Below are positions 6,127 to 21,949 of a DNA stretch of 64,000 nt, piece by piece. Origin of the DNA: Muribaculaceae bacterium. GTDB taxonomy: Bacteria > Bacteroidota > Bacteroidia > Bacteroidales > Muribaculaceae. Position 1 is the stretch's first letter. Every line of letters starts with the position of its first letter. The position numbers and the translations under genes are program-made. Where the stretch lies: contig JAFUKL010000024.1 of assembly GCA_017473615.1 (NCBI GenBank), forward strand, positions 4,029 through 68,028, given 5' to 3'. The notes below the pieces were generated by a model. That model did not search any database. It saw nothing but the letters and a program-made list of their open reading frames with translations, and was not told the origin of the DNA.

Positions 6127-6129
6127 TTG

Positions 6130-6203
6130 TAGCGGGAACGAGAATTGAACTCGTGACCTCCGGGTTATGAATCCGACGCTCTAACCAACTGAGCTATCCC
6201 GCC
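6130..6203 (-). tRNA. tRNA with CAT anticodon (tRNA-Met, or tRNA-Ile2 if modified with lysidine)
   Basis: The reverse complement reads GGCGGGATAGCTCAGTTGGTTAGAGCGTCGGATTCATAACCCGGAGGTCACGAGTTCAATTCTCGTTCCCGCTA. It shows the acceptor stem, D arm (GCTC/GAGC), anticodon loop TTCATAA and T arm (ACGAG TTCAATT CTCGT). CCA is not encoded. Confidence 0.9.
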
Positions 6204-6442: not shown

Positions 6443-6607
6443 ATGAAAAAGTATATTTGTATTCCTTGCGGTTGGATTTATGATCCTGAAGTTGGTGATC
6501 CTGATGGAGGTATTGCTCCGGGTACTGCATTTGAAGATATTCCGGATGATTGGACTTGCCCTTTGTGCGGCGTGACTAAGGATGACTTTGAAGAATATGA
6601 AGAATAG
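6443..6607 (+). CDS. Rubredoxin (54 aa; alternative start at 6434)
   Basis: My own translation is [54 protein letters not shown]. It carries the CxxCG ... CPxCG iron-binding motifs. The ORF is below the track's length cut-off. Confidence 0.9.
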
Positions 6608-6635
6608 GATGCTGTTTCTTTTCATAGAAAGTGGA

Positions 6636-6675
6636 GATGCGCAGGCTAAATGTTATATAGCTTGCGCATTTTTTA
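6636..6675 (+). terminator. Intrinsic terminator after the first rubredoxin
   Basis: Hairpin gatgcgcaggct..gcttgcgcat followed by ttttt. Confidence 0.55.
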
Positions 6676-6961
6676 TGATTTAAAGAAGTTGTTTGAATTA
6701 TATTGAAAAATATTATTACAGTTTTACTTGTGTCATGTTTCGGATTTTTTAAGGCTCTTTGGGCTGTCATTTTCATCAAACAGCTTGGAAATAGCCCACT
6801 ATTACCTGTGCAATTTGACGAAAAATCCATTCCAAAATATTCCTTAAAATAATATCGAAATAAAATTAAAGCAACTTCTAAAAAAATAGTGTATGAGGAA
6901 GTGAAATTTTAAGTAGGTTTTGTTGTTGTATTTATGTATCTATTAAAATAAATGAATGTCT

Positions 6962-7126
6962 ATGAAAAAGTATGTATGTGTGCCTTGTGGCTGGGTCTAT
7001 GACCCTGAAATCGGTGATTCTGATGGTAATATTGCAGCCGGAACACCATTTGAAGATTTGCCGGATGACTGGGTTTGTCCTTTGTGCGGAGCCGGGAAAG
7101 ATGACTTTATTCAAGAGGAGTCTTAA
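6962..7126 (+). CDS. Rubredoxin (54 aa), second tandem paralog
   Basis: My own translation is [54 protein letters not shown], with the same CxxCG/CPxCG motifs. Confidence 0.9.
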
Positions 7127-7344: not shown

Positions 7345-8547
7345 TTATAAGTTGCAGTTTTTGAGGATTTTAGCAGGAATAGCAGCTTTGTTTACCACGA
7401 TGTCTATGGTTTTGGCAAGGAAATATGCCTCAGATACATAGATGTAGCCGTCATAAATTTGGTTGGTATCCCATGAATTCTTTACCTTATAATATTTGTT
7501 CCCTTCTTGATCTATGGCAGAACCTACAATTACCATACCGTGGTCATCGGTAGTAGTGTGGTTGTCAAAAGTCTCTTGACGTGATTCCTGTGTAACGGTT
7601 ATTTCTTCGGTAGGTCCGTTAAATTCATATTTTTCTTTTTCTCTGTCTTTATCCGATAGCTTGGTCCATCGTGCAAGTTCAGTACCTTCAAGAGAATCTG
7701 CAGTCTTTTCTTTCGGCATTAGCGCCACACCTTTTTTCCATTGGAAACCGGGTTCACTCACATCGGCTGCCCATGCTACAGAATAACCGTTTTTAATGGC
7801 GTTGTCGACAATTTCTTTTAACTCTTCGATTTTTACGTTGTAGTATTCCCCCCATATCCAGTTATCGGCAACTTCAAGAGCGAAAGGCGCATTGAACGGA
7901 TGGTGAGTGAACGAGGTGAAAGGTATATAGTCATCAATGTTTATTCCGAGAGAAGCCGCATAGCTCTCAGGTGTATATTCCTTTCCTTCGTGAGTGAATT
8001 TTTCCGGAAGTTTCCCAAGGTAGGCATCCAAAATTCCTTTAAATCCGTTAAACCATGCTGTCGACAATTTGCGGTTGGGATTTTTGGCAATTCCATTGAT
8101 ATAACCTTTAAGTCCGGCAATCATTTCATAATGGTTATGTTTTGTATCACCATAATTAAGTCCTGTATATACTTCTTCAGGCACCATTCCGTACCGTTTC
8201 CACACATAAGGAACGTCAAGGGTACTGCCACCTTGTTCAAAGTTGATTTTTTGATCCATGCGAATGTGTTTCATAGCCTTGTCGGCATAGCAGTGATATA
8301 CAACGTACATTTCGCTCAAATCCACCTCTTTTCCGGTTTTTTTCAATATTTCATTCTCCAAAAAAGAATTGGTAGAGAAACACCAACATGTTCCGGTCTT
8401 GTTCTGGTCTTTAACCGATGTTTGCTTTACTATTTTTACATCGGTAAACGAGAATCCGGTACTATCTTGATTGGTAGTTTCTTGAGAATTGGCTGAAACT
8501 CCGGTTGATAGGAGAGCAATAATGCTCAATAATACATTTTTCTTCAT
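7345..8547 (-). CDS. pepC: Secreted C1B-family cysteine aminopeptidase (aminopeptidase C / bleomycin-hydrolase-like)
   Basis: It has a signal peptide (MKKNVLLSIIALLSTGVSA), the active-site Cys context QNKTGTCWCFS, and the length and C-terminal His region (DDHGMVIVG) typical of PepC. Confidence 0.85.
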   Translation of the reverse strand: MKKNVLLSIIALLSTGVSANSQETTNQDSTGFSFTDVKIVKQTSVKDQNKTGTCWCFSTNSFLENEILKKTGKEVDLSEMYVVYHCYADKAMKHIRMDQKINFEQGGSTLDVPYVWKRYGMVPEEVYTGLNYGDTKHNHYEMIAGLKGYINGIAKNPNRKLSTAWFNGFKGILDAYLGKLPEKFTHEGKEYTPESYAASLGINIDDYIPFTSFTHHPFNAPFALEVADNWIWGEYYNVKIEELKEIVDNAIKNGYSVAWAADVSEPGFQWKKGVALMPKEKTADSLEGTELARWTKLSDKDREKEKYEFNGPTEEITVTQESRQETFDNHTTTDDHGMVIVGSAIDQEGNKYYKVKNSWDTNQIYDGYIYVSEAYFLAKTIDIVVNKAAIPAKILKNCNL

Positions 8548-8709
8548 ATTTTATATATTTGATGTTTGTCTTCTACTGCAAAAGTAATAAAAAATAGTTT
8601 ATAAGTGTATAAAAGAGCCGTATTGCGGCGTGCAATAGAACAAAATAAATCAGAATTTTGTAATTTTGTAAAAACAATGATTTAAATAACGGATATAAAA
8701 ATTACTGAA

Positions 8710-9405
8710 ATGAAAAAGTTTTTGAGTGTTTCTTTGAGCCTTGCTTTGCTATTTGGAACAACAGGTTGTTCTGTTCAAAATGCGACTAATACGCAGAAGG
8801 GTGCAGTTATCGGTTCGGCAGGCGGTGCAGCGGTAGGTGCCAGCATCGGGGCTTTAATCGGAGGAGGAAAAGGTGCATTGATAGGCGGAGTATTAGGAAC
8901 TGCGGCAGGTACAACGGCAGGTATACTGATAGGTAAGAAAATGGATAAGCAAAAGGCTGAACTTGAAAAAATCGAGGGTGCGCAAGTAGAAACCGTTACT
9001 GATACTAATAATCTGCAAGCTATCAAGATTACATTTGACAGCGGTATATTGTTCGGATTCAATAAAAGCGATTTGAGTGCTAATGCCAAGCAGTCTTTAA
9101 GCGAATTTGCACAATCCTTGAAGAATAATCCTTCAACTGATGTTACCATTTACGGTTATACTGATAATGTGGGTAGCCTTGAGGCAAACAAGAAAGTCTC
9201 TAATCAACGTGCGTTGACTGTACAACAATATTTAATGGAGTCGGGTGTTCCCACCAATCGCATGACGGCTCAAGGTCTTGCATGGGAAAATCCTGTGGCA
9301 AGTAACGATTCTGAGGCAGGGCGTGCGCAGAATCGCCGTGTTGAAATCTATATCACTGCTAATCAGGAAATGGTGAATCAGGCAAATGCAGGTACATTAA
9401 GATAA
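8710..9405 (+). CDS. OmpA-family lipoprotein with an N-terminal glycine-zipper segment
   Basis: Lipobox LLFGTTGCS; glycine zipper GSAGGAAVGASIGALIGGGKGALIGGVLG; OmpA C-terminal domain motifs (GYTDNVGS..NQ.LS..RA, NRRVEIYI). Confidence 0.9.
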   Translation: MKKFLSVSLSLALLFGTTGCSVQNATNTQKGAVIGSAGGAAVGASIGALIGGGKGALIGGVLGTAAGTTAGILIGKKMDKQKAELEKIEGAQVETVTDTNNLQAIKITFDSGILFGFNKSDLSANAKQSLSEFAQSLKNNPSTDVTIYGYTDNVGSLEANKKVSNQRALTVQQYLMESGVPTNRMTAQGLAWENPVASNDSEAGRAQNRRVEIYITANQEMVNQANAGTLR

Positions 9406-9426
9406 CAAGGCTGTTCTTATAAACCT

Positions 9427-9472
9427 AAAGGAGCTGAGCCAAAAAACAATTTTGACGCAGCTCCTTTTTTAT
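9427..9472 (+). terminator. Intrinsic terminator of the OmpA-family gene (shares a 31-nt identical block with 43284-43314)
   Basis: aaaggagctg ... cagctccttt hairpin followed by tttttatt. Confidence 0.8.
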
Positions 9473-9493
9473 TGTCGGTGGTTAGACCGAAGA

Positions 9494-10051
9494 TTATTTA
9501 TTGTTACTTTCATTGATGTTCTTCATGAATAATTTTTCAAGAAGTTCCATGTCAATTGAAATATCTTTGTTGTTCTTTAATTCCTCATACAGAAGTTTCA
9601 AATAGTCGTTTCCCTTGATTTCAAGTACCATATAATTAGTGTATTGTCCCGTTTTTTCATCCTTAGTCCAACGGTCACACACGATAGTCGCATTGGTAAT
9701 AGTCTTGTTGACGGTTACTTTGGTTTTATCGTTAAGTAGTGACTTGGAAACGGCTGACAATTGTCCTTCAGATAGGGCAGTTGTATAGTCCTCTGTGGTT
9801 GCGTTGACGGTTCTGGAAAGTGTTGCTGCTAAATCGGCTGAAGCCGCAACTTGCGCCTTTTTGCGTGCTGAGGTTTCGCTATCCGATTTTCCTGATGCCC
9901 ACGCACGTATTACGCCTTCACCGCTTTTCAATTCGGAACAAGGCATTACGAATGTTTTTATAGGGCTTTTTTCTACTTTTTTTGAAGACCCGCAACTGCT
10001 TAAACATAGAGTTCCCAAAAGAACAGCTACGTATAAAAGATGAGATTTCAT
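9494..10051 (-). CDS. LPP20-like lipoprotein (185 aa), last gene of the nine-gene operon
   Basis: Lipobox LCLSSCGSS. The helical segment SARKKAQVAASADLAATLSRTV resembles the LPP20-family A..A...A...LA pattern. Confidence 0.7.
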   Translation of the reverse strand: MKSHLLYVAVLLGTLCLSSCGSSKKVEKSPIKTFVMPCSELKSGEGVIRAWASGKSDSETSARKKAQVAASADLAATLSRTVNATTEDYTTALSEGQLSAVSKSLLNDKTKVTVNKTITNATIVCDRWTKDEKTGQYTNYMVLEIKGNDYLKLLYEELKNNKDISIDMELLEKLFMKNINESNNK

Positions 10052-10061
10052 TTTGTTTTGT

Positions 10062-11405
10062 TTAATTTAAGTTTAACTTCTTTATTTGATTGGGTAAATT
10101 ACGGTTAACACGCTTCATAACTTCCCTTATGCACTGTGCAATTGTTTCATTTGCTTTCTTGTGTACGGGAGAGAGAACTTTAACTCTGTCAACCGAATAA
10201 TCCAGCAAGAGTTGCTCACTTTTATTGTTATAAATCTTAATAGTCAAAGTACAATAACAGGTGTTCAAATCGTAGCTGCCTCCTGTAACGGTATTACCGT
10301 TCTCTATTACGCTTGATATTTCAATGAAACATTGAGCAGCGTCGGGGGCTTCGGTTACAACGAAATGGTTATTGGTGAACAAACTCCTTAGTTGTCGCTC
10401 GATACCTTCCAAGTCGTTGTCGTCGCTGATGTGAATATAAGCTGTTACCGGACTGTTCTTTAATTGAATGGTAACTTTAGCCGATGGCATGGCTTGATTC
10501 TTGAGCAGTTGCTTATAGGCTTTTGGCAAGGAGTTCAAGAAAGAGTCATCAATGGAAATACGTACTTCCTGTACCTTGTCTTTGGATGTGATGTTTGTAA
10601 TGTAAAATTCGGCTGTTCCGGTATGGTCGGTCTCTATAGCATCAGATACAGCACCGCTGCCGGAAATAAATTCGGCTTTAAGTTTTACGTTAGGAATCAC
10701 ATTACCGTTTTTTGAAAGGCAACCGGCAATCGGTGTCGGGACAGCCTTAAATGACTCTCCCTCCACAAGAGTTACATTAGTTGTAATAGCCATGTTGCTG
10801 AAAACGTTGACATAAGCAGAGTAAAGTTCTGAAGGTATATTTATTTCATGACCGTTTTCTATGGTTGTCAAGTTCATAAATACCCAAGGCTCTACGGTCT
10901 CAAGTCCTTTCCCATACAATTGTACCGCTTGCGAAAGATTCATCGTATTTTCGGCATTCTGCCCTTTATGCAAATAGTCAAGTCCTGATTGTATTGCATG
11001 TTTTCTGCGGGATTCGGCATTACGAGCATAAGTGTCCTTGTCGAGAACGTAATATACATAGTATGTTTTATCGGTTTTGTATGTATCTTTCAGTTCTTGA
11101 CCTTCGAGCCATGCTGCAAGTGAACTCTTGATTTTGTCCTCAAACATGTCACGGGACTTTCCGTCTACGTCTATAAGATGCAAGAATGAGTTGTTCTCTA
11201 CCTTGACGGCAATTTGTGACGAAATATCAGCCAAGGCGTTCTGGGTAGCTTTCTTCATATAGTCGGCATCGGAAACGGATGCCATGCCTATACCTACGTA
11301 TTCCTTATCTGATATCGGGTGTGTTGTAACCCAATCAGGCACATTTGCTGCGATACCGAAACATACGCATACCGAAAGCAGAAAAGTTGATAAAATCTTT
11401 TGCAT
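10062..11405 (-). CDS. LPP20-domain secreted protein (447 aa)
   Basis: It has a signal peptide. PDWVTTHPISDKEYVGIGMASVSDADYMKKATQNALADISSQIAVKV matches the LPP20 lipoprotein domain signature. The C-terminal ~250 aa are unassigned. Confidence 0.75.
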   Translation of the reverse strand: MQKILSTFLLSVCVCFGIAANVPDWVTTHPISDKEYVGIGMASVSDADYMKKATQNALADISSQIAVKVENNSFLHLIDVDGKSRDMFEDKIKSSLAAWLEGQELKDTYKTDKTYYVYYVLDKDTYARNAESRRKHAIQSGLDYLHKGQNAENTMNLSQAVQLYGKGLETVEPWVFMNLTTIENGHEINIPSELYSAYVNVFSNMAITTNVTLVEGESFKAVPTPIAGCLSKNGNVIPNVKLKAEFISGSGAVSDAIETDHTGTAEFYITNITSKDKVQEVRISIDDSFLNSLPKAYKQLLKNQAMPSAKVTIQLKNSPVTAYIHISDDNDLEGIERQLRSLFTNNHFVVTEAPDAAQCFIEISSVIENGNTVTGGSYDLNTCYCTLTIKIYNNKSEQLLLDYSVDRVKVLSPVHKKANETIAQCIREVMKRVNRNLPNQIKKLNLN

Positions 11406-11423
11406 AACGTTCTGTATTAAAGT

Positions 11424-12683
11424 TTAGAATTTTGATACCGTTAAAATGATTGTTCCACCTTCAACACGAGAGTCGGCTTGAATACCTTCATCTCTTAAAT
11501 CTCTTTTAAGTTGAGATAAGAATTTAAACGGATTCATTTTTCTGCCTTTTTTATCGGCTTTAGGTATCATGATATAATCAAAAATCACTTGTTCGTCAAC
11601 GACACCTTGCATGTGATAATCACCATTGTGAGCGTTATCGTCAAGCCAGTACATGACGAAATCGGCAACGCTGTCGCCATTGGTGCATGCCGGGTCTTGC
11701 AGGCTCATCAATGTATTGCCCGCATCGTTAAGCAATGTGATCTGTAGAGATGTACGGGTAGGCTCGGAATAATACTTCAATATCTGTTCCAAGAAAGGCT
11801 TTATGTTGTCTTCTACGGCATATCGGCACAACGCATCCATAGGAGCAGTGCGGTAATACTGTTTTGAACCGCCCGTTTGTGAACCCCAATCGGCATTGGT
11901 GGCAACGTCATGAGCATGAAGAATCAATGATACTCGGCTACCTAAAGATGTGGTTTCTTTTTTCAAGTCTACAACTACGTAGACATCAGCATTGGAACTT
12001 GTGAGAAGAGTTCTGTCATTGGATTCCACTGCACCGGCATTCTCCTCATATTGTCCGCGTCGTTCTGCGCTTTGAATGTGTGACAATAGATCCATAGTGC
12101 GTATATCGCAATTGTTGAACCCTTTTTTAACTTCTTCCACAGCCGTGCGGCGGTCGAAGTCATTCTCCAAAATGGATTTATAGCTTTCTCCGTCTTTCTT
12201 GAAAGGAACTACAATTACCGTGGGTTTCGGCTGAGTCTGTTTTATAGTTTCTTGCTTTTCCCGGTAACCGGTATTCTTTCTTACGTCATTTATAAGTTGC
12301 GTAAGGCGTATGGTGATTCTATAAGTACCTTGGTGAACACCTCCCGATTTTTTTGGTTTAACATATTCCTCTGTTTCAACCAAGTAATGAACATATCGTT
12401 TGTTGAAATCGAAAAATGAATCGGTATATTTCTCATTAGCTTTAACGACAAGCGGTTTACCGTCATCCACCCCTTCTACACCCTGAAAAAACAGGGTGTA
12501 GAATAGAGATTGAATGGCATTTGCTTTACAACCGTCTTTACCGTCACCTACACCTGCCGATAAGAAGGTTCCTCTTACACCGCCGGTGGATTCCAAGCTT
12601 ACTATCGACAAATATTCTTCTGCTTTAACGGTGTTTATGCAGATGAATGACAGCAAACAAAGTATAGCAAATATTTTTTTCAT
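11424..12683 (-). CDS. Secreted protein (419 aa), an LPP20-like N-terminus plus an alpha/beta module; function unknown
   Basis: It has a signal peptide (MKKIFAILCLLSFICINTVKA). The gap to both neighbours is 10-18 nt. The central segment PTVIVVPFKK...AVEEVKKGFNNCDIRTMDL resembles LpoB/CsgG/TolB-N-type alpha/beta modules. Confidence 0.65.
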   Translation of the reverse strand: MKKIFAILCLLSFICINTVKAEEYLSIVSLESTGGVRGTFLSAGVGDGKDGCKANAIQSLFYTLFFQGVEGVDDGKPLVVKANEKYTDSFFDFNKRYVHYLVETEEYVKPKKSGGVHQGTYRITIRLTQLINDVRKNTGYREKQETIKQTQPKPTVIVVPFKKDGESYKSILENDFDRRTAVEEVKKGFNNCDIRTMDLLSHIQSAERRGQYEENAGAVESNDRTLLTSSNADVYVVVDLKKETTSLGSRVSLILHAHDVATNADWGSQTGGSKQYYRTAPMDALCRYAVEDNIKPFLEQILKYYSEPTRTSLQITLLNDAGNTLMSLQDPACTNGDSVADFVMYWLDDNAHNGDYHMQGVVDEQVIFDYIMIPKADKKGRKMNPFKFLSQLKRDLRDEGIQADSRVEGGTIILTVSKF

Positions 12684-12693
12684 ACGGTTTTAA

Positions 12694-13557
12694 TTAAAAA
12701 ATACCAAATGTCTTTTGCTCTTGAATTTGCTTGACTTTTAGAGGCTCTTTAGCTTGAGCTTCTTCGTCAAGGGCTGCATATTTTTCTATGATTACAAGAG
12801 CTTCTTTTTGTTTCTTTGTTACTTTACAATAAGATAAGGTTTCATCAACAACTTCTTCCACTTTAAGCTGAGCAACTTCTTTGTAAACAGTGCGTCCTGC
12901 TCTTGTGGTAGCATCCATGATTGCAAAATAATCGCCTTTCTTAACTCCGTGGCTTGAGCCTACATTAATGTAGCACTTTTGCAATTTTTTCTTTTTAGCT
13001 AAATAATCTGAAGGATTTACGGTTCCTTCGATAGGCAATATTTCTATTATTAATTCTTTTAAGTCAAGATCAATCATGTCGGCTGCTCCTGCGATGGCTT
13101 TTTCTTTAGTGTCATATAATTCAAGCGCATCCATTAAGCCGCCAAGACCTGAAGGAGAGTGGTCAAAAGCCTTAGTACCTACTGTGGTCTGTTCTTTTGC
13201 ATCGGTTACGGTAACGGTGTACTTAAGTACACAACCGTATTTGGTTTTTCCGTCTTTGACTTTTTGGTTGGTAGAAACGGTAAGTACATTGGCGTTCAAA
13301 ATGAAATCTGCCATTTCTTTTTGGCGTTTCTCAAGTTCCGGTTCAAGCCCGCTGATAGTAACAGCATCAATAAGTTCAAATCGTCCTGTTTTTGTCAATC
13401 CGTCAAGAATAGCTTGGCGAACCAATACTGCATTATCATTTGATACAGCATCGGCTTTATTGATTTTTTCAACAAAAATACGTGGTTTCTCACTTTGTGC
13501 TTGTGCAAAAACTGCGGCACATACCATCATTGTAATTAGGAAAATAACTTTTTTCAT
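12694..13557 (-). CDS. CsgG/LpoB-like periplasmic protein (287 aa)
   Basis: It has a signal peptide. RIFVEKINKADAVSNDNAVLVRQAILDGLTKTGRFELIDA resembles the CsgG/LpoB N-terminal pattern. The C-terminal beta-barrel-like motif is INVGSSHGVKKGDYFAIMD. Confidence 0.65.
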   Translation of the reverse strand: MKKVIFLITMMVCAAVFAQAQSEKPRIFVEKINKADAVSNDNAVLVRQAILDGLTKTGRFELIDAVTISGLEPELEKRQKEMADFILNANVLTVSTNQKVKDGKTKYGCVLKYTVTVTDAKEQTTVGTKAFDHSPSGLGGLMDALELYDTKEKAIAGAADMIDLDLKELIIEILPIEGTVNPSDYLAKKKKLQKCYINVGSSHGVKKGDYFAIMDATTRAGRTVYKEVAQLKVEEVVDETLSYCKVTKKQKEALVIIEKYAALDEEAQAKEPLKVKQIQEQKTFGIF

Positions 13558-13593
13558 AAAAATAAATTGTTAATTAGTTCGTAAATTCAAATA

Positions 13594-14754
13594 TTATAAT
13601 TTTGCTTGAGCTTCGGCACTGCCTAATTTGGCAGCCTTTTTGAAGTTCTTTCTTGCAAGCATATCGTTTATACCTACGTTGCCGCAACCGCTTTCATAGA
13701 TTATTCCCAGCATGTAGTAAGCTTTTGCACTTCCCGACTTGCTGAAATGACCTATAGCTTCAAGTCCTTCGCCGGCTTCGTATGCTTTCATCCCTGCTTC
13801 ATAATTTGCATCCGGCTTTTCTTCGGCAGCTTTGACCGTATTGTTCTTTTCACTTGCCGGTTCTTCGGTGTAAACGGTTTGGGGCTCTTCTTTAACAGTC
13901 GGAGCCGGTTCGCTTTGCGGAACTGACGCCTCTTGAGTCTCTTGGGCTGTCGGTTCCATATCGTTCTGTTTGTTTTCGTTACCTCCTGATAGGGCGAAGA
14001 ATCCGATAATTGCTGCTAATACAATAATAGCTATAAACCATTTCATGTTGCTGCCTCCTCCTGTCTGTTTGTGTTCAACTGATTTTGTGTTATCTACCGG
14101 TGTGAAGTCCTTTGCTCCGACCTGCGAAATTTTTGTGTTTGGTGTACGTGCCGAAAAGGCTGCAGCTGTTGCAATGGGTGTGACTTCGGGCTGTACGGCT
14201 TTGACAGCCGGTTTTAATTCGGCTGTGAGTTCTTTCTCGATTTTTTCAGTACAGTCTTCCAAGTCGAGCCGGTTAGCCAATGAATTCATGATTTGTCGCT
14301 CGGTAAATCTTATCTCACCGTTTGTAGCAAGGTATAGTTTCTGAAATTCTGTGCGGTATTCATTAATGGCTTTCTTTTCGCACTCGATACAGCGGTTTTT
14401 ACCTTTCACTTTACATTCAAGGCATATTTCCTTACCGCATTTTGGACAACGTGCATGTTTCTCTTCAAGAGCGTTACCGCACACTTCGCAATATTCGGCT
14501 TTCTTCTCGTTCATAACGTAAGTGGTGTTATGGTTTACGGTAGAAGAATTGTCGACATTGGAAGTGTTTACATTGTTATGGGTATTGGATGTCTTGTTGA
14601 CACCACCCATAATATTGGCGCGTGCTCCTGCTCCTATAATGGACGTTTCTTTATCCTCGCCCGATGTTGGAATTTCAGTGCCGCAGTTTTGGCAGAATCG
14701 TTCGTCAGATTCTATCTGTGTTCCGCATTCAGTGCAAAATTTTTCTTTGTTCAT
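13594..14754 (-). CDS. Bitopic membrane protein: N-terminal Zn-ribbons, one TM helix, C-terminal Sel1-type repeat
   Basis: CTECGTQI..FCQNCGTEI; CEVCGN..CPKCGKEICLECKVKGKNRCIEC; TM helix WFIAIIVLAAIIGFFAL; Sel1/TPR-like C-terminus AKAYYMLGIIYESGCGNVGINDMLARKNFKKAAKLGSAEAQ. Confidence 0.8.
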   Translation of the reverse strand: MNKEKFCTECGTQIESDERFCQNCGTEIPTSGEDKETSIIGAGARANIMGGVNKTSNTHNNVNTSNVDNSSTVNHNTTYVMNEKKAEYCEVCGNALEEKHARCPKCGKEICLECKVKGKNRCIECEKKAINEYRTEFQKLYLATNGEIRFTERQIMNSLANRLDLEDCTEKIEKELTAELKPAVKAVQPEVTPIATAAAFSARTPNTKISQVGAKDFTPVDNTKSVEHKQTGGGSNMKWFIAIIVLAAIIGFFALSGGNENKQNDMEPTAQETQEASVPQSEPAPTVKEEPQTVYTEEPASEKNNTVKAAEEKPDANYEAGMKAYEAGEGLEAIGHFSKSGSAKAYYMLGIIYESGCGNVGINDMLARKNFKKAAKLGSAEAQAKL

Positions 14755-14783
14755 CGCTCTTTGATGTGTTATTGATTGGTTTT

Positions 14784-15056
14784 TTACTTTTCTTTTTTCT
14801 GAATAATTGTTTCGGAAGGTTCATCCGAAGATATTGATGTTACACAAAAGTGTTCCGTTTGTTCTTCCACACTTCCCGTAACATATACTTTCTTACCGTG
14901 ATAGGGGGCAAAGAATGTATCATCGACCGGCATGCAGTTCGTTCTGTAAAGAGTGTATTCTTTACCGTCATTGCATTTCAAAAGAGCTGAGTGCCCCTCT
15001 GATTTGGTTCCGATATTCTGCATGCTATATTCAATTATTCCGAAAAGAGTTATCAT
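14784..15056 (-). CDS. Small cytoplasmic protein (90 aa), function unknown
   Basis: The ORF sits between two operon genes with 20-29 nt gaps. I recognised no motif. Confidence 0.55.
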   Translation of the reverse strand: MITLFGIIEYSMQNIGTKSEGHSALLKCNDGKEYTLYRTNCMPVDDTFFAPYHGKKVYVTGSVEEQTEHFCVTSISSDEPSETIIQKKEK

Positions 15057-15076
15057 TGCTGTCGTGTGATTAAAAA

Positions 15077-17416
15077 TTACTTAATGGAAGAACCGCAATT
15101 TTCGCAGAAAGCGGCATCGGTATCAACCTTTTCTCCGCATTCCGAGCATACTTTTGCCGATATGACTTTTTCTTCTGTGGGCTGTTGTTCCTCAGGTCTC
15201 GGATTGTTATTATCTGCACTTCTTTGTGGTTTTGGTTGTTTTGCGGTATTATCGCGAGTGGTATAATCCAAAGCGCGATCATAGGCGGTATCCATTCTGC
15301 TTTCTTGGCGGCGGATACGTTCGTCTTGTTCACGCAGTAATCTGTCTTTTTCGTCCAGTTTTTCCTGTGTGCGTTGGTTGTTGTCGGCACTTCTTTGAGC
15401 CTGCATACCGCTTGCCATGGACATCATGTTATTCATCATTTCAAACATGCGTGCTTTGGTGTCCTGCTGATCGGCATCACGTGCAGCTCGTTCGGCATCT
15501 ATGCGTGCGTCCAATTCACGTCTTTGAGCTTCCAAACGTTCTGATGTTTCACGCTCGCGGTCAGCATTGTACTTGTTTTGAGCGTATGCAACAGCACCGT
15601 CGCCGCCGTTCAATGCCCATACTTTTTCATCAGAAAGCGTCTGCGCATTTTCCCACTTCATGCGTTCTAATTCTTCAGCATTCTTCAGGCGATTCTGTTC
15701 CATTTCAGCCTCATGCTTGCGCTGGTTTTCCCGAGATTGTTCTTCTGCGGCTTGCATTGCAAGGAATTGACGGAATTGTGCATCATCGTCTTCACGTTTG
15801 AGGTCGTGCTGTCGTTTAACGTCATTATAGGCAATGTCACGCTTGCGTTGCTCTAAATCAAGTTTGGTATCTTCTATGGCGCGTTGTTGTTCCAATTTCT
15901 TATTGAAACGGCTGTCGGCATAATCGTCACGTAATCCTTGTATTTCAAGTTCCTTTTTGACGATTACTACTGCTTTTTCGGTTTCACCTTCAAGACGAAC
16001 CCTTTCAAATTCTATTCCATCGCGTAATTGCATCATTGCTAAGGATACGTTACGCTGATGAGAATTTGTCTTTACTTGATGAGCAAGAGTTTCAAGCTCG
16101 TCCTGTCTGATAAGACCTGTCTTGTATATTTCAGCCAATGCAGCTTGTGTCTCATTCTCGGTTTTCGCTTCACGTATCTTTCGCTCGTTAAGTAACAAAT
16201 GCTCGAATTTAAGCAATTCATCCTCGTTAAGCAGTTCTTCGTTGTGCTGATTCCTGTTTATGGCATTAAGTTTTTTTCTTAAATCAAGTTCAGTTTCAGC
16301 TTGGTGAATCTCTTGTGCATTGACTGCATCGGCAAGGCGATTTTTGAAATCATTTGTGCGGAGCAGGTAATCAAGTTCTTTCTCAGACAGGTATAATTCC
16401 TGACTTAATTGTGAAAAACGCTCCAAGTCTTCGCTTTTAGCCGAAATTTCAACGATACGAACCACAGAAAGCCCGAAGAACGTCTCTGCAGCAACTGCAT
16501 TTATACGGTCTTTTAATAGAGTATGCAGGTCGGTAGGAATGCGGTTTGATTCAAGTTCGGTATCGTATAGTGCATCTTGCAGAACTACGCGTATCGTATC
16601 AGCTATTTCATCAACAATTAACGCTGAATTAAGCTTTTGTTTGTCAGTCAGGTAATGTAGTATGAATCGTTCCGGATCGGAAATTTTGAAATAAGCGTTT
16701 ACACCTATACCCATTTTGATGTGGCGGGTTTGTATCTGCATCGGAACGAAGTTCTTATAATCATCAAGATTACTTTGCTTAGCTCCTATCATTAACGGAA
16801 ATGCCTTATCCAAGAGTATTATGACAGAAAAAGCCGCACCTTTTTCGGCGTTTTCCAAAATCACTTTCTGCTGATGCAAATATATTTCCTCTTCTGTCTT
16901 AACACCTGTGTTGTTCTTTTTTGTGCCGGAGAAGAGGTTTACTATCATTTGCCAACCTTTTTTCAACATTTTCCCTACAGAAAAGGATGAAGGCGAAGAG
17001 GTATTGGCCAAATCGTATGTTCCTCCGCTTATAGATGCTATGGTACGTCCGTTGGCTCTTATGTAGGCAGTTGTTCCTTCGGGAACTATTATACCTTGTA
17101 TTTTATTGTATGTCTCAAATTCAGATTCAGTTATTACGCGGGCTACTTGTCCCGGTTGAACGTTCCAGTAAATTCTGCCTTTTGCCGTATTCATGTCGTC
17201 CGGAACTTGAACGGGAGATGCTTTGGTCTCGGCTTGAGCGTTTACCTCAACCGTTGCTACGGTTAATTTATATCCGCATCGGGTGCAGAATTTTGCTCCC
17301 GGCTTCAATGGTGCATTGCATTGAGGACATAGGGATGAGGTCTCAATTTTTTGTCCGCATTGGGTGCAGAATTTTGCACCTTCGCGAAGTTCTGAATTAC
17401 ATTTCGGACAATTCAT
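15077..17416 (-). CDS. Zn-ribbon / SPFH (YdjI, COG4260-like) / long coiled-coil / Zn-ribbon protein (779 aa)
   Basis: Two N-terminal Zn ribbons (CPKCNS..CTQCGQKI; CPQCNA..CTRCGYKL). The segment GRIYWNVQPGQVARVITESEFETYNKIQGIIVPEGTTAYIRANGRTIASISGGTYDL is typical of YdjI/'virion core protein-like' SPFH proteins. About 350 aa are E/R/Q-rich coiled coil. The C-terminal Zn ribbon is CSECGEKVDTDAAFCENCG. Confidence 0.8.
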   Translation of the reverse strand: MNCPKCNSELREGAKFCTQCGQKIETSSLCPQCNAPLKPGAKFCTRCGYKLTVATVEVNAQAETKASPVQVPDDMNTAKGRIYWNVQPGQVARVITESEFETYNKIQGIIVPEGTTAYIRANGRTIASISGGTYDLANTSSPSSFSVGKMLKKGWQMIVNLFSGTKKNNTGVKTEEEIYLHQQKVILENAEKGAAFSVIILLDKAFPLMIGAKQSNLDDYKNFVPMQIQTRHIKMGIGVNAYFKISDPERFILHYLTDKQKLNSALIVDEIADTIRVVLQDALYDTELESNRIPTDLHTLLKDRINAVAAETFFGLSVVRIVEISAKSEDLERFSQLSQELYLSEKELDYLLRTNDFKNRLADAVNAQEIHQAETELDLRKKLNAINRNQHNEELLNEDELLKFEHLLLNERKIREAKTENETQAALAEIYKTGLIRQDELETLAHQVKTNSHQRNVSLAMMQLRDGIEFERVRLEGETEKAVVIVKKELEIQGLRDDYADSRFNKKLEQQRAIEDTKLDLEQRKRDIAYNDVKRQHDLKREDDDAQFRQFLAMQAAEEQSRENQRKHEAEMEQNRLKNAEELERMKWENAQTLSDEKVWALNGGDGAVAYAQNKYNADRERETSERLEAQRRELDARIDAERAARDADQQDTKARMFEMMNNMMSMASGMQAQRSADNNQRTQEKLDEKDRLLREQDERIRRQESRMDTAYDRALDYTTRDNTAKQPKPQRSADNNNPRPEEQQPTEEKVISAKVCSECGEKVDTDAAFCENCGSSIK

Positions 17417-17444
17417 AATATATAAGTTTTTGTGTTTGTTATCG

Positions 17445-19133
17445 TTATTTAGTCATTATTACTTCTTTTATTTTGCCGTTTTCTGTGGTTCTTACTATGT
17501 ATGTCATGGATATTTCAGAACCGGGCAGAACGTCATAATTAAATCTCAATTCTTTACTGCCATCGGCGTATTTTACCTTAAATACACTGTCGGGATTCCG
17601 CGGCTCTATTCCGTAATACTCGTAGAGATGGCTATTGATGCTGTTACGTATTTGTGAAATGTTCTTATCCACATTTTTACGAACCAAGTTAAGTATAGAA
17701 TTGCCGTTGCCGGATAAATCCAATTGTTCCATTTTGCAGTCGTATGCTTTTCCGCTCATTATGCCTTTGGACTTGTCCAACGTCTTTGGTCGGTCTTGGA
17801 ACATTTCGGGCGTGACTGCAAATAATGATGGGTCGCCGAAAAGGTTGAACTCCGTAACTGTTGATATTGTGTTAGGATTTATTTCGCAATCTCCTTCTTG
17901 GTTCAAAACCATATCTCGGGCAATTAATAAAGCTTGTCCTGCGCTGTATCCGCCTAATATTGAACTGATAAATCCCAATGCCATTGTATCGGCATATACA
18001 GGTAATACCGGAGTATATTCAGTGATAGAAACAGGATCTACGTTTCCCCATGCGATGCGTGACGAACCTAAAAACAACAGTGCTTGGGCATATAATGCCG
18101 AAAGTAACATGCTGTGCCGCTTGTCAAGACCTATGAATCTGGCACCGTAGCATGCTTCGCATACTATGATGTTTGGAACACGGCAGGAACTTATATGCTC
18201 GGGTAATAAAACGGGTATAGAGACTTTCTGCCCTTTATGTGCTCCGAACCATCCTCTTGCTTCAAGGGCGTTACATCCGTGCAGATTATAATAGTATAGA
18301 TGCGCCTTGTCATGAAAAACACGGTTTACATTTTCGGTAGTGATACCGGGTGACAGTATCAAGCGGCGGAAATAGCAATCGGCTGATATGTACCCGTCCA
18401 GATTCCTTAATTTATTGGCTGCAATCAAATCATCTATGACTGTAGCAGAAACATTTTTCCAATTAGGGTCACATTGACCGTAGGCTTCTGTAAGCGGGAT
18501 TCCTTCTGCACCTTTTACGGCTCTTTCCAAATAGTTACGGAAATCTTCCGATGTCGTATCTTCTCCTATCGGCAGACGTCCTACAAGAAAAGCCTGCTGA
18601 TACCTGAAAATCTGTGCATTTTGCAGCATAGGCATCATGTTTTTGCCGTAGGGGAATGCGTATAGTATATCGGTGTCTATCGTTTTGTCTTTTACATCGA
18701 TGCAATAGTGCGGAATACGAGGCATCGGAATGATGTCGTTACCACCTATTATAAACAGATAATTGATTTCCCGCTTGTCGGCTTGACGATTGTATGCATC
18801 GGTTAATACATCCATGTAGCCGGATATGCCGCTATCGGGATTGGGCGGTGTAACTATATTGTCGGATACATAGTTTCCTGTATCAACCAAGCTGTATGAA
18901 ACGCCGTAACTTTGTTTTACACCAATATAGTATTCCAGTAGTTTATGAACGGTATGTTCTTCTGTGCGCAATTTGGCGGCAAGACGCTTCACGTCGGTAA
19001 ATATGATACCGGATGCGTAAAAATTATTTTTGACCGCTGAATCCTGCGTATCCTCAGCTATCTTCGTTCCGCATTCAGGGCAAAATATCGCATCCTGTTC
19101 ATTTATCTTATAACCGCATTCCGGACAGTACAT
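17445..19133 (-). CDS. Zn-ribbon fused to a clan-CD (gingipain C25 / legumain / caspase-like) cysteine peptidase domain, cytoplasmic (562 aa)
   Basis: The N-terminus is CPECGYKI..FCPECGTKI. NYLFIIGGNDIIPMP resembles the C25 YLLLVGD..IP strand. Candidate His-Cys dyad: YYNLHGCN, then 43 aa later NIIVCEACYG (compare legumain EACESG and caspase QACRG). There is no signal peptide. Confidence 0.7.
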   Translation of the reverse strand: MYCPECGYKINEQDAIFCPECGTKIAEDTQDSAVKNNFYASGIIFTDVKRLAAKLRTEEHTVHKLLEYYIGVKQSYGVSYSLVDTGNYVSDNIVTPPNPDSGISGYMDVLTDAYNRQADKREINYLFIIGGNDIIPMPRIPHYCIDVKDKTIDTDILYAFPYGKNMMPMLQNAQIFRYQQAFLVGRLPIGEDTTSEDFRNYLERAVKGAEGIPLTEAYGQCDPNWKNVSATVIDDLIAANKLRNLDGYISADCYFRRLILSPGITTENVNRVFHDKAHLYYYNLHGCNALEARGWFGAHKGQKVSIPVLLPEHISSCRVPNIIVCEACYGARFIGLDKRHSMLLSALYAQALLFLGSSRIAWGNVDPVSITEYTPVLPVYADTMALGFISSILGGYSAGQALLIARDMVLNQEGDCEINPNTISTVTEFNLFGDPSLFAVTPEMFQDRPKTLDKSKGIMSGKAYDCKMEQLDLSGNGNSILNLVRKNVDKNISQIRNSINSHLYEYYGIEPRNPDSVFKVKYADGSKELRFNYDVLPGSEISMTYIVRTTENGKIKEVIMTK

Positions 19134-19162
19134 GATTTTTCCTTGGTTGTGTAAAACAATTG

Positions 19163-20539
19163 TTATTTCTTCATGTATTTTTCTCTCTTTTCTGTCACTT
19201 TCTTGACATAATTCCGCGTCTCTTGAGCCGGAAGATTGACAATCAAGTGGTTGTATAGTTGAGAGTACTCATACTTGTTGATTAGCGCAAATATCTTTTT
19301 GCTCAGATTCCTTGTGTTGTCGAATGCTCGGCACACATTGCCCGGACCGGTATTGTATCCGGCAATCACGCATAACCGTTGACAGTGCGTATCGTTTACA
19401 TCTGAGAATGTATTCATAAGTATCCTTAAATAAGCCGTACCCAACTCAATATTGTTGCGAGGGTTGTATAGATAGGCAGGTTCAGGTATCCATGATTTCT
19501 TGTACACATATTGATATGCCGTAGCACCTCCATATTTTGGGACTAATTGCATCAATCCGTATGCGTTAGCCCAACTTTTGGCTTCAGGATTGAACGCCGA
19601 TTCCACTTCCATAACGGCAAAAATCAAAGGTTGTTCCACTTGGAATTTTTTAGAAAATTCCGCTACAATGTCTTTATATTTATATGCGTTTTTTGAAAGG
19701 TTGTCGGCAACGAGGCTCATTTGTACTTGTACTACTTTACGGCTTTTTCCGTCATTCCCGATTATTGATGATGTTTTCTTGTTGATTTGTTGCGCAATCT
19801 TTTGAGCCAAAGAAGACTTGTTATTCTTGTCTTTAAGCGCATTTGCTCTTTCCTCGGCTTTCTTACGAGCATTATCCCGCTTTTCGGCTAAAGAACTTTT
19901 TGAAACGTCGGAACTCTTTTTATCCTTAGCGTTGTTGACAGATGTACCGTTGGAATTACCCTGTGATTGGTTTACAGCCAACGGCTTGCCTTTTACTGTG
20001 GGTTTAGGTGGAGCCGGACGGTTATTGACTGCAACTGCAACCGTGTCCAAATCAAACATTGAGAAATCTACAATATTATCAAGAATCGGAGCTTTGGTTA
20101 GCGGTTCTGATTGGTTAGCTGCCTTGAATGGATTTGATGAGCCTCGGCTGTTTAGTAATCGTTCGATTGTTTTTGCCAAACGACTGTTTATGGCTGAAAT
20201 ATCGGAATTTTCGTCTTCATCTATTGCCACCTCAATCAGAATATCTCCTTTCTCGAAATTGACTATGGAGCGCGAGTGGAAATCGGTATCATATTCGACC
20301 CATTCTTTGGGTGTGTCGTTTATGATTGTGTCGCCACCCCAAATATTAGTAATGGATTTTACGAATTGTTCATAGTCGGCAAGAGCTTGTGCTTCGTATG
20401 CTGCGAAATCCGAACGTTGTTTTGCCGCATCTTGCTCAAAACTCATTTTCATCGAATCCAGTGGGGTAGATGACGTTTGGCTGAATGCGCTTAACATACT
20501 TGCCAAGAATACTATTATGATGAGTATATATTTTCGCAT
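19163..20539 (-). CDS. MltC-like membrane-bound lytic murein transglycosylase (458 aa), first gene of the operon
   Basis: It has a signal peptide. The SLT domain carries the catalytic Glu context VMEVESAFNPEAKSWANAYGLMQL and AGYNTGPGN. The central linker is low-complexity and K/S/N-rich. Confidence 0.85.
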   Translation of the reverse strand: MRKYILIIIVFLASMLSAFSQTSSTPLDSMKMSFEQDAAKQRSDFAAYEAQALADYEQFVKSITNIWGGDTIINDTPKEWVEYDTDFHSRSIVNFEKGDILIEVAIDEDENSDISAINSRLAKTIERLLNSRGSSNPFKAANQSEPLTKAPILDNIVDFSMFDLDTVAVAVNNRPAPPKPTVKGKPLAVNQSQGNSNGTSVNNAKDKKSSDVSKSSLAEKRDNARKKAEERANALKDKNNKSSLAQKIAQQINKKTSSIIGNDGKSRKVVQVQMSLVADNLSKNAYKYKDIVAEFSKKFQVEQPLIFAVMEVESAFNPEAKSWANAYGLMQLVPKYGGATAYQYVYKKSWIPEPAYLYNPRNNIELGTAYLRILMNTFSDVNDTHCQRLCVIAGYNTGPGNVCRAFDNTRNLSKKIFALINKYEYSQLYNHLIVNLPAQETRNYVKKVTEKREKYMKK

Positions 20540-20681
20540 ATTGTCAACGTTGTATTTTTAAAGGTTTTATATCCTTATAATTCCCAAATATTCTTTAGTT
20601 TCATGCAGTTTTAAGTATTCCTTGCACTTGTTTTTCTATTTTTTCTATGTAAAAATGTCGTATTTTATAATTACTTTTTCG

Positions 20682-20689
20682 CAAATTTA
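20682..20689 (-). promoter_or_regulatory. Candidate Bacteroidetes -7 promoter box (TAAATTTG on the minus strand) for the nine-gene operon
   Basis: It matches the TAnnTTTG consensus. It lies ~140 nt upstream of the 20539 start and 20 nt downstream (in the direction of transcription) of a 9-nt G-run. Confidence 0.4.
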
Positions 20690-20709
20690 AACAATTAATT
20701 GTGGTTTTA

Positions 20710-20718
20710 CCCCCCCCC
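20710..20718. repeat. Homopolymeric C9 tract (G9 on the minus strand) in the divergent intergenic region
   Basis: Read directly: ttttac ccccccccc aatt. It is embedded in a ~55-nt motif shared with 39805-39855, where the run is C7. Confidence 0.95.
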
Positions 20719-20841
20719 AATTACTAAAATATGTTAATGTGACCAATTTTGTCACTATTCAGTAGTTGTTTTGATTTTAGTTGGCATAAGAAATGACTTG
20801 AGAAATAGGGGTGGTGTCTTGTGGAATATTGTTAAAAATAT

Positions 20842-20849
20842 TACTTTTG
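20842..20849 (+). promoter_or_regulatory. Candidate -7 promoter box TACTTTTG for the acyltransferase gene
   Basis: It matches TAnnTTTG and lies 30 nt upstream of the ATG at 20879. Confidence 0.5.
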
Positions 20850-20878
20850 TGTGACACAAAATTAAGCGTAAATCAGAG

Positions 20879-21949
20879 ATGGAACAGAACAAAAGTATCC
20901 GTTTGCATTATTTTGACATGTTAAAAGGGGTTGCCATTTTTATGGTGGTTATAGGGCATGTTCTTACTATGTGCATACGTGAGATAGACAATGCAGTTCT
21001 TTTTAAATTTGTAGAGAAGATTCACATGCCTGTGTTTTTCTTTATAAGCGGCTATTTTACGTATAAAGTGATTAAAGACGGGAAACTTGCTATACCGGAT
21101 GTTAAGGCGAGAGCAAAACAATTGCTTATCCCGTTTTTTGCCGTGAGTACATTATGGATTTATTATTTTCCGCATAGTGGTTTGCAGAGTCCATTTGATT
21201 CTACATGGGAAGGGTTGTATTTCAGTACAGGGAAAAACGGCTATTGGTTTACATTATGTCTCTTTGAGATAATATTGTTGTATTGTGCTTTGATTTCGGT
21301 GCTTGAACGTTGTAAGAGTGTTGCCGCTAAATTTGCCGTGGTGGTCGCTGTATGGATTGTATTAGGTTTGTTGACGAAATTTGTGTTTACGGAGAAAATA
21401 AATTCGTTGATAGGAGTTCCGTTGCTGTTTGAATTCTTTCCGGTGTTTATGTTTGGCATTATGGCTCGTTCGGTGAAAGAAACCTTTGACAATGTAACGT
21501 CTGATTCAAAGTGGATAACGATTGCGATTGTAGCAGGTAGTTTTTTGATGTACTATGTGTGTTGGTCGTGGGAATTTTCGCTGCCGGTAGAGTGTGTTGA
21601 CATAGCGAGACAATTGTTGTATGTATGTGTGGTAATAGTCTCGATAAGTGTAGCTAAGTCATGGAGTTTTAGGGCTTTCGGAACAGAAAATCCACGTGGT
21701 TCAATTTCGGGGCGTGTGTGTGAATATATAGGCAGGCAGAGCCTTGCTGTGTATTTGCTCCATTATTTCTTTTTATTTCCCTTGACGGTGTTAAGAGAAC
21801 CGTTGATAGAAATGAATCTTGGTTTTGTGCCTACTTTGATATTCGCATCATTTTTTGCTTCGATAATTATCGCTGTTACGTTGGGCGCAAATTATATAAT
21901 ATGTCACAGCAAGCCATTGGCTTTGCTTTTGACAGGAAAAGAAAAATAA
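20879..21949 (+). CDS. Integral-membrane acyltransferase (acyltransferase family 3 type)
   Basis: About 10 predicted TM helices. The N-terminal pattern FDMLKGVAIFMVVIGHV is typical of Acyl_transf_3 O-acyltransferases. Confidence 0.8.
   Translation: MEQNKSIRLHYFDMLKGVAIFMVVIGHVLTMCIREIDNAVLFKFVEKIHMPVFFFISGYFTYKVIKDGKLAIPDVKARAKQLLIPFFAVSTLWIYYFPHSGLQSPFDSTWEGLYFSTGKNGYWFTLCLFEIILLYCALISVLERCKSVAAKFAVVVAVWIVLGLLTKFVFTEKINSLIGVPLLFEFFPVFMFGIMARSVKETFDNVTSDSKWITIAIVAGSFLMYYVCWSWEFSLPVECVDIARQLLYVCVVIVSISVAKSWSFRAFGTENPRGSISGRVCEYIGRQSLAVYLLHYFFLFPLTVLREPLIEMNLGFVPTLIFASFFASIIIAVTLGANYIICHSKPLALLLTGKEK

Follow-up and report, generated by a model that had tools for sequence, protein, structure and literature searches.

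A block of nine consecutive genes in a Muribaculaceae bacterium may encode one envelope-spanning complex that would link an outer-membrane assembly with regulated proteolysis at the inner membrane; we put the probability of this reading at roughly 40%. The genes (G1 to G9) occupy positions 9494-20539 on the minus strand of a 64,000-nt stretch of assembly GCA_017473615.1 (contig JAFUKL010000024.1, positions 4,029 to 68,028 of the forward strand). The whole stretch is called the window here, and coordinates refer to it unless another locus is named. The complex is proposed because of the predicted compartments of the proteins, the folds of G3 and of G6-G9, the precedent of the Bacillus subtilis protein YdjI and the known pairings of SPFH proteins with proteases. 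An earlier interpretation made from the letters of the window (the sequence-only reading) had suggested an uncharacterised trans-envelope system. Linkage, folds and predicted topology support this suggestion, and the physical connection between the parts is what we infer. The nine genes are as follows:

19163-20539, minus strand: G1, 458 aa, with a signal peptide, an MltC_N-like region and an SLT catalytic domain
17445-19133, minus strand: G2, 562 aa, with an N-terminal Zn ribbon, a Peptidase_C25 domain and a conserved C-terminal domain
15077-17416, minus strand: G3, 779 aa, with two N-terminal and one C-terminal Zn ribbon (Pfam), an SPFH-like domain and long helices
14784-15056, minus strand: G4, 90 aa, with a conserved domain of about 75 aa and the motifs GSKSEG and LYR
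13594-14754, minus strand: G5, 386 aa, with three Zn ribbons, a transmembrane (TM) segment at about 234-260 and a C-terminal Sel1-type repeat
12694-13557, minus strand: G6, 287 aa, with a signal peptide and a weak likeness to FlgT
11424-12683, minus strand: G7, 419 aa, with a signal peptide and a Pfam DUF6175 match (2.8e-44)
10062-11405, minus strand: G8, 447 aa, with a signal peptide, an N-terminal LPP20 domain and further domains
9494-10051, minus strand: G9, 185 aa, with the lipobox LSSC (Cys20) and an LPP20-like domain

Linkage of the nine genes

The nine minus-strand open reading frames (ORFs) were found at the positions and with the lengths given by the sequence-only reading, and its gap range of 10-36 nt was reproduced. 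From G1 to G9 the intergenic gaps measure 29, 28, 20, 29, 36, 10, 18 and 10 nt, and therefore there is no intergenic space for promoters within the block. The public gene call for the same sequence agrees on the nine genes except for G9, which it starts at an internal ATG (150 aa, L082 17471-17923), so that the signal peptide and the lipobox are lost. The 185-aa ORF is the better model because both of these features are conserved in the orthologues. The absence of internal terminators, claimed by the same reading, was confirmed as well: a scan of 8500-21500 gave 11 terminator-like sites compared to 12.4 expected from shuffled sequences, i.e., no excess, and the sole minus-strand site inside the block (13029-13010, within G6) is weak. 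Two elements outside the genes bear on the ends of a putative single transcript:

9427-9467, no strand assigned: long hairpin, located between the convergent genes for G9 and for an OmpA-family protein
20682-20689, minus strand: TAAATTTG, which fits the -7 promoter motif of Bacteroides type (TAnnTTTG) and precedes the G1 start by about 143 nt

The hairpin stands directly after G9 and is likely the end of the transcript. The region that contains it (9410-9496, 87 nt) folds as RNA with -30 kcal/mol and z = -5.5, and none of 200 shuffled sequences folds as well. At the other end, G1 has an upstream region of 339 nt in common with an acyltransferase gene, which is transcribed divergently. TAnnTTTG is the consensus of the Bacteroides-type -7 promoter element, and it was found 72 times in the window compared to 73 expected, which means that it is not enriched. 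Because this count equals chance, TAAATTTG is regarded as a candidate promoter element only; a scan for sigma-70 motifs also gave counts equal to chance and was uninformative. A homopolymer of nine G (20710-20718, minus strand) follows directly after ATTG about 21 nt upstream of TAAATTTG, at a place where a change in length could alter the promoter spacing. Phase variation at this tract was considered and rejected, as three independent assemblies agree in its length and slippage is thus unsupported.

Related loci were identified in one genome per GTDB species by a scan with a motif from the G2 alignment in combination with tblastn, which gave 147 matches among 185,579 species representatives. 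The locus counts given here refer to the best 80 of these 147 G2 relatives and to tblastn searches with the nine window proteins. Co-occurrence in other genomes, which the sequence-only reading had named as a check of its proposal, was indeed observed. All nine genes are present in the same order in 36 of the 80 loci, with median gaps of 11-47 nt in these canonical loci, and eight of the nine in the same order in another 7. In 24 loci G2-G3 stand beside at least one of G6-G9 in a different order, and 13 loci gave only the cytoplasmic genes in the tblastn search, 8 of them on short contigs. The pair G2-G3 is present in every one of the 80 loci, G4 and the Zn-ribbon/Sel1 protein G5 in most. At least three rearranged orders exist (6789-235-1, 67(9)-2345 and 234(5)...7, in gene numbers), and G1 is missing or lies on the opposite strand in several variants. 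The genes which flank the block in the window were found in none of the other loci, and flanks are common to close relatives only.

All 80 loci are labelled Bacteroidales with the exception of one metagenome-assembled genome (MAG) labelled Enterobacteriaceae (L048). Carriers belong to Butyricimonas, Odoribacter, Phocaeicola, Mediterranea, Alloprevotella, Bacteroides, Alistipes, Rikenellaceae and Paludibacteraceae, and where the title of a record names the source, it is a gut, faecal or rumen sample in most cases. The similarity of G2 does not track taxonomy: its identity to the window protein is 46% in Butyricimonas and about 37% in named Bacteroides species.

An exported module is present in every variant locus that was inspected, while its composition varies. 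L042 (Bacteroides hominis) encodes G2, G3, a protein of G4 size that contains the KSEG motif, and a Sel1 protein. Directly after them, four secreted paralogues in tandem, each of about 146 aa and without Pfam match (L042 15455-17292), take the place of G6-G9; therefore the exported module appears to be exchangeable. In L077, an uncultured Bacteroidales MAG, G2, a shorter G3, G4, the Zn-ribbon/Sel1 protein and a DUF6175 protein (4e-95) are encoded together with four other signal-peptide proteins and without an SLT gene, and a similar gene order is found in Paludibacteraceae loci. The G1 slot of L077 (7794-9434) holds a 546-aa exported protein with a weak match to a transglutaminase core (E 0.013), which could be another enzyme that acts on the cell wall or modifies proteins. 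This first gene of L077, whose product has a signal peptide, was also considered as a relative of G1; the one-to-one comparison gave E 0.03, and because this similarity is not significant a domain swap in the G1 slot is unproven.

Domains, folds and predicted compartments of the encoded proteins

Based on sequence features, G2-G4 are predicted to be cytoplasmic and G5 to cross the inner membrane, whereas G1 and G6-G8 are predicted to be periplasmic and G9 is presumably a lipoprotein on the outer membrane.

G2 is classified from its sequence as a cytoplasmic clan-CD cysteine protease of family C25 with a catalytically intact dyad, in agreement with the clan-CD protease expected from the sequence-only reading. 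The Pfam family Peptidase_C25 (PF01364) matches residues 66-437 with 4e-10 and 39.9 bits (cutoff 23), covering positions 13-372 of the 374 profile positions, and most of the G2 homologues carry a precomputed Peptidase_C25 assignment. The dyad residues are found in the contexts N-L-H285-G286 and E-A-C328-Y-G, which is the His-Gly / Ala-Cys type of clan CD. H285, G286 and C328 as well as the four Cys of the N-terminal CPEC...CPEC Zn ribbon are unchanged in 78 of 78 full-length orthologues. The alignment to the structure of gingipain R is weak (E 0.59). G2 shows no signal peptide, TM segment or N-terminal hydrophobic segment, and Pfam gave no match to a C-terminal domain family of the type IX secretion system (T9SS). 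An unannotated region of a Sinorhizobium meliloti megaplasmid (NZ_CP088115.1, 130772-131371) encodes 28% identity to residues 276-486 of G2, which include the catalytic Cys, and suggests that distant C25-like relatives exist outside Bacteroidota.

G3 likewise lacks a signal peptide and any TM segment, and G2 and G3 are thus the two large Zn-ribbon proteins without signal peptide that had been claimed. In G3 an SPFH-like alpha/beta region (about residues 80-340) is followed by a highly conserved helical segment (about 315-420) and by long helices at 457-590 and 607-720. From 32 homologues an AlphaFold2 model was built; its mean predicted local distance difference test (pLDDT) score is 68, with about 80-88 over residues 180-340. 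When this model was compared to the PDB with Foldseek, the top 12 matches were all stomatin, HflK/C, flotillin or prohibitin, with probabilities of 0.72-1.0 and a best E of about 4e-4; the matched entries include an HflK/C assembly in complex with FtsH. The SPFH part ascribed to G3 by the sequence-only reading was thus recovered in the fold search but not as a Pfam sequence match, and even among the orthologues Band_7 gave a weak match (E 0.003) in only 2 of 29. Because the domain is isolated by sequence, G3 is called SPFH-like in fold and not a sequence-level member of the family. A Rosetta-stone fusion was also looked for in nine long relatives of G3 (942-1279 aa), and none of them has a fused protease; one of them shows a weak Cas12f1-like TNB match.

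The small protein G4 had been described as featureless. This holds as far as families are concerned, since searches of Pfam, NCBIfam and the PDB, profile search included, gave no match; it does not hold for the sequence itself, as the domain of about 75 aa with its motifs is conserved. G4 was found in 62 of the 80 loci, always after G3, and it has no signal peptide or TM segment. Alignments of G4 to G2 and to G3 with hhalign showed no relation.

G5 is predicted to be the single-pass membrane protein with Zn ribbons and Sel1 that had been proposed. Conservation across its orthologues extends to the first Zn ribbon and a VDNS motif, to the TM helix and a linker rich in Pro/Ala/Thr/Gln, and to the repeat at the C-terminus; C7/C10/C21/C24 of the first ribbon, D68 and S70 are invariant. 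The two further Zn ribbons are a feature of the subfamily of the window protein. The Sel1 match of the window G5 stays below threshold (21.9 vs 30.7 bits) and passes in the equivalents from L077 and L042, with 47.7 and 44.5 bits. The VDNS motif with the invariant Asp and Ser (residues 66-70) stands inside a low-complexity Asn/Ser/Thr-rich cytoplasmic linker between the ribbon and the TM segment, and one may speculate that it is a protease cleavage site or a docking or contact motif. At least seven Zn-ribbon units had been counted in three consecutive proteins; seven CxxC...CxxC units were recovered, of which G2 has one and G3 and G5 have three each. It is tempting to speculate that the N-terminal Zn ribbons common to these three proteins are docking modules.

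The product of the first gene had been named an MltC-like lytic transglycosylase, and this identification was corroborated: in G1 both SLT (4.7e-27, 94.3 bits) and Mltc_N (2.9e-09, 37.3 bits) are above the Pfam cutoffs, and the motifs E313-S314, GLMQ and YNxG are unchanged in 50 of 50 orthologues. Compared to the NCBIfam equivalog of E. coli MltC (PRK11671) G1 reaches 186.5 bits, below the cutoff of 375, and Cys is absent from its signal peptide, so that lipoprotein anchoring is not predicted for it. The NCBIfam model of the flagellar assembly lytic transglycosylase gave 77.5 bits, far below its cutoff of 234.

For G6-G9 the sequence-only reading had claimed four proteins with a signal peptide or lipobox and LPP20- or CsgG-like modules. 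The export signals and LPP20 were confirmed, but the lipoprotein status is supported for only one of the four, as only G9 of the nine proteins carries a canonical lipobox. The orthologue profile of G6 matches FlgT entries in the PDB (9ydo, 9yec, 8z5n and 3w1e) with E = 0.008-0.035, and Pfam FlgT_C scores 1.9e-4, below the cutoff. The AlphaFold2 model of G7 has a pLDDT of 81.6, and its top Foldseek match (E 2e-6) is to a chain of 352 residues from 8z5n, the LP-H-T ring of Vibrio; we take this chain to be FlgT, although its identity is not confirmed. Further matches of the G7 model with a probability of about 1.0 are CsgG, PelC, GNA1162, LpoB and TolB, which have a common alpha/beta fold. The CsgG-like module is therefore seen in the fold search of G7, whereas Pfam CsgG matches neither G6 nor G7. 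G7 lacks a canonical lipobox, and a full-text literature search gave no paper which mentions its family DUF6175. In G8 the LPP20 family (PF02169) scores 3.9e-11 and 43.7 bits (cutoff 25.9), and the orthologue profile matches the LPP20-family structure 4kzs with E 0.013. G9 has no direct Pfam match; its alignment to the G8 profile by hhalign has a probability of 90.5% and E 1.3e-6 over the LPP20 region. Among the other pairs compared by hhalign, G6 aligns with G7 and with G8 only over the signal peptides, and G7 with G8 is weak (probability 21%). Single-sequence searches of the PDB with G2, G3 and G7 gave nothing useful, and the profile search with G7 was empty.

A proposed trans-envelope complex and its alternatives

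In the favoured model, G6-G9 would make up an assembly located at the outer membrane on its periplasmic side, and G1 would locally open the peptidoglycan so that this assembly can be reached. G5 might bind the outer assembly with the Sel1 repeat at the end of its long flexible periplasmic linker, while its Zn ribbon would dock the anchorless G3 at the cytoplasmic face of the inner membrane. There, the G3 scaffold, together with G4, could hold or gate the protease G2. The state of the outer envelope would thereby be coupled to proteolysis, which would amount to envelope surveillance or quality control. The contacts between the proteins, the formation of rings, the direction of information flow and the substrate of the protease are parts which we infer. 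Other SPFH proteins, most of which differ from G3 in having a membrane anchor, oligomerise into membrane-attached rings or cages, and SPFH scaffolds are classically paired with proteases, e.g., HflK/C with FtsH. A more far-reaching version of the model, which we consider doubtful, is an undescribed trans-envelope signalling machine of gut Bacteroidales. In this version, homologues of flagellar-ring, curli and Pel lipoproteins would form the outer assembly, and damage to the outer envelope or its breach would trigger a cytoplasmic proteolytic switch via a Sel1-TM-Zn-ribbon tether and an SPFH-type cage that gates the gingipain/caspase-like protease, with an exchangeable sensor module.

Several observations weigh against the model. 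The operon encodes no transcription factor, ATPase or identifiable substrate, as judged from the Pfam and NCBIfam families of the nine proteins. The SPFH-like assignment of G3 comes only from a model of medium confidence (pLDDT 68): the window protein has no Band_7 or Band_7_1 match in Pfam, a phmmer search of residues 75-450 against 1.84 billion representatives returned only 259 relatives, and a Pfam scan of the nine long relatives gave Zn-ribbon-type matches but none to Band_7. The match of G6 to FlgT is weak. In the LPP20 family, ring formation correlates with a specific insertion and not with membership alone (PMC12222027). Finally, an exported module which varies between lineages would fit a sensor with exchangeable input, but it would fit other designs equally well.

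The surroundings of the block in the window were taken into account for the alternatives. Its neighbours are housekeeping or glycan-utilisation genes, with the following features on the side of G9:

6129-6203, minus strand: tRNA-Met gene, which directly abuts the integrase ORF
4798-6126, minus strand: ORF of the phage integrase family, 442 aa, adjoining the tRNA-Met gene

This pair lies 3.3 kb beyond G9, with the integrase on the far side of the tRNA, and therefore the element extends away from the operon; the pair is probably the border of an integrated element towards lower coordinates. Between the pair and a gene for a C1-family peptidase, two rubredoxin genes of 54 aa each are located on the plus strand (about 6443-6607 and 6962-7126, coordinates converted from L082). 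An overlapping 84-aa ORF on the minus strand (about 6576-6830) is flanked by the two genes.

Patchy distribution within the Bacteroidales, G2 similarity that is incongruent with taxonomy and a variable module on the sensor side would all fit an anti-phage or abortive-infection system, in which the exported module detects a breach or adsorption and the caspase-like protease kills or arrests the cell; caspase-like proteases do act as effectors of conflict systems. This role is nevertheless very unlikely and was the least supported of those listed by the sequence-only reading, since PADLOC, the neighbourhoods and mobile elements gave it no positive support. The window neighbours are of the housekeeping or glycan-utilisation type, the flanks in other genomes are mutually unrelated, and the integrase/tRNA-Met element points away from the operon. 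A mobile-element origin was rejected as well: viral contigs gave only a Zn-ribbon match, and plasmids only the partial, distant Sinorhizobium match (38% of G2 at 28% identity). Moreover, nine genes with, by our count, five exported structural proteins and a transglycosylase are unlike known defence systems. The same patchy distribution argues against a basic architectural role, as it would be expected for a purely structural tether between outer and inner membrane (for spacing, attachment or vesicle release) in which G2 serves only maturation or turnover. Such a tether would account for the long linker and Sel1 repeat of G5, the outer-membrane lipoprotein-type folds, the long-helix cytoplasmic scaffold and the lack of an obvious signalling output. 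However, a strictly conserved protease and a conserved G4 are hard to explain if proteolysis is incidental, and we regard the tether as unlikely.

In a further alternative, the cluster would secrete or assemble a polymer or fibre of the cell surface: G7 and G6 would form a CsgG/PelC-like conduit or funnel at the outer membrane, G1 would clear the peptidoglycan and the cytoplasmic proteins would prepare or gate the cargo. This would be in line with the resemblance of the G7 model to the outer-membrane export components CsgG and PelC and with the weak sub-cutoff score of G1 to the flagellar assembly transglycosylase. Dedicated lytic transglycosylases also commonly accompany trans-envelope machines. 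On the other hand, no inner-membrane translocase, ATPase, glycosyltransferase, polymerase or cargo family was found among the nine proteins or the scanned proteins of variant loci, Pfam does not place G6 or G7 in the CsgG family, and a variable exported module such as the four small paralogues of L042 is unlike a fixed conduit. An apparatus of this kind therefore seems quite unlikely. That two or three unrelated units (G1, G2-G5 and G6-G9) are merely juxtaposed is highly improbable. It would agree with the loci in which tblastn detected only G2-G3(-G4-G5) and with the variable position of G1, but the linkage of cytoplasmic and exported genes survives several independent rearrangements while the flanks change completely. 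L042, the one tblastn-negative locus which was inspected, has exported proteins directly downstream, the divergent L077 likewise, and the short gaps in the window leave no room for promoters. Among these explanations the envelope-spanning complex with regulated proteolysis is the one we favour.

Relation to known systems

Every individual domain of the nine proteins belongs to, or resembles, a known family. The combination of the parts is rated new as a system because no description of it was found and because it does not belong to YdjGHI, the flagellar rings, curli/Pel, the secreted gingipains or known defence systems; its function and physical unity are deduced from comparative genomics and predicted structures. 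Searches of PADLOC, NCBIfam, PDB sequences and the literature placed the set in no characterised pathway; such a placement would have counted against the sequence-only reading. PADLOC-DB 2.0 gave one match below 0.01, PD-T4-6 on residues 168-309 of G5 (linkers and TM helix; E 5e-5, 21 bits), and otherwise matches at chance level. No NCBIfam equivalog is above cutoff among the nine proteins, and literature and PDB sequence searches gave nothing that describes this gene combination.

If the model is true, it would add a new envelope-spanning apparatus to abundant gut and rumen bacteria, namely Muribaculaceae, Butyricimonas, Odoribacter, Bacteroides, Alistipes and Paludibacteraceae. G2 would then represent a gingipain-family protein that is cytoplasmic and associated with a scaffold, of which we know no other case. 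The control of proteases by SPFH cages would be extended to cysteine proteases, and lipoproteins of the FlgT/CsgG/LPP20 type would be employed in a setting other than flagella and curli. Through the cluster, functions can also be sought for DUF6175, the small G3 family (about 260 representative clusters) and the orphan domain of G4. As cultured carriers exist (Butyricimonas spp., Odoribacter sp. AF15-53, Mediterranea massiliensis and some Bacteroides spp.), these hypotheses are directly testable.

In B. subtilis, YdjI is a soluble SPFH protein with a C-terminal Zn finger, and YdjG and YdjH are needed for its membrane localisation (PMC8581546; bioRxiv 10.64898/2026.02.06.704340). Like YdjI in the PspA-YdjGHI (SamGHI) system, G3 is a soluble SPFH-type protein with terminal Zn ribbons and without its own anchor, and in both cases a membrane protein is encoded nearby, here the bitopic Zn-ribbon protein G5 two genes downstream of G3. 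The likeness to YdjI which the sequence-only reading had pointed out is thus valid as an analogy, but not as membership: G3 has no sequence match to Band_7_1 or Band_7, the host is Gram-negative, and no pspA or other PspA/ESCRT-III gene is present among the nine or within 10 kb. Conversely, YdjGHI lacks the protease, G4, the periplasmic Sel1 tether, the four exported lipoprotein-type proteins and the transglycosylase of the cluster.

The FlgP family is related to LPP20, and FlgP and FlgT form rings which are associated with the outer membrane (PMC12222027). The cluster resembles the flagellar rings (the FlgT H-ring of Vibrio and the FlgP basal disk of Campylobacter) in that G6 and G7 may be FlgT-like, G8 and G9 are LPP20-like and a lytic transglycosylase is encoded alongside, although the sequence matches are weak. 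It differs in that no flagellar family was found among the nine proteins or the genes within 10 kb. Bacteroidales are non-flagellate. The CsgG protein of curli and the PelC protein of Pel form rings of 9 or 12 subunits beneath the outer membrane and share the alpha/beta fold of the G7 model. This is a likeness of fold only, as G7 has no lipobox and the partners CsgA/B/E/F or PelA/B/D-G are not found nearby.

Signal peptides and T9SS C-terminal domains are found in gingipains and PorU, which are secreted or located at the cell surface. G2 has the C25 catalytic domain and the His-Gly...Ala-Cys dyad in common with them; in contrast to them it starts with a Zn ribbon instead of a signal peptide, and neither the cluster nor its neighbourhood encodes a T9SS partner. 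In HflK/C-FtsH, stomatin-NfeD/STOPP and prohibitin-m-AAA, an SPFH oligomer is paired, genetically or physically, with a protease, and the oligomer controls the access of substrates to it. The cluster differs from these pairs in that the protease is a predicted cytoplasmic C25 cysteine protease and not an AAA+ or serine protease, and in that G3 has no TM segment, is predicted to be cytoplasmic and is genetically linked to exported proteins. What the cluster has in common with them are the best matches of the G3 model and the adjacency of G2 and G3, which is kept in all of the 80 loci.

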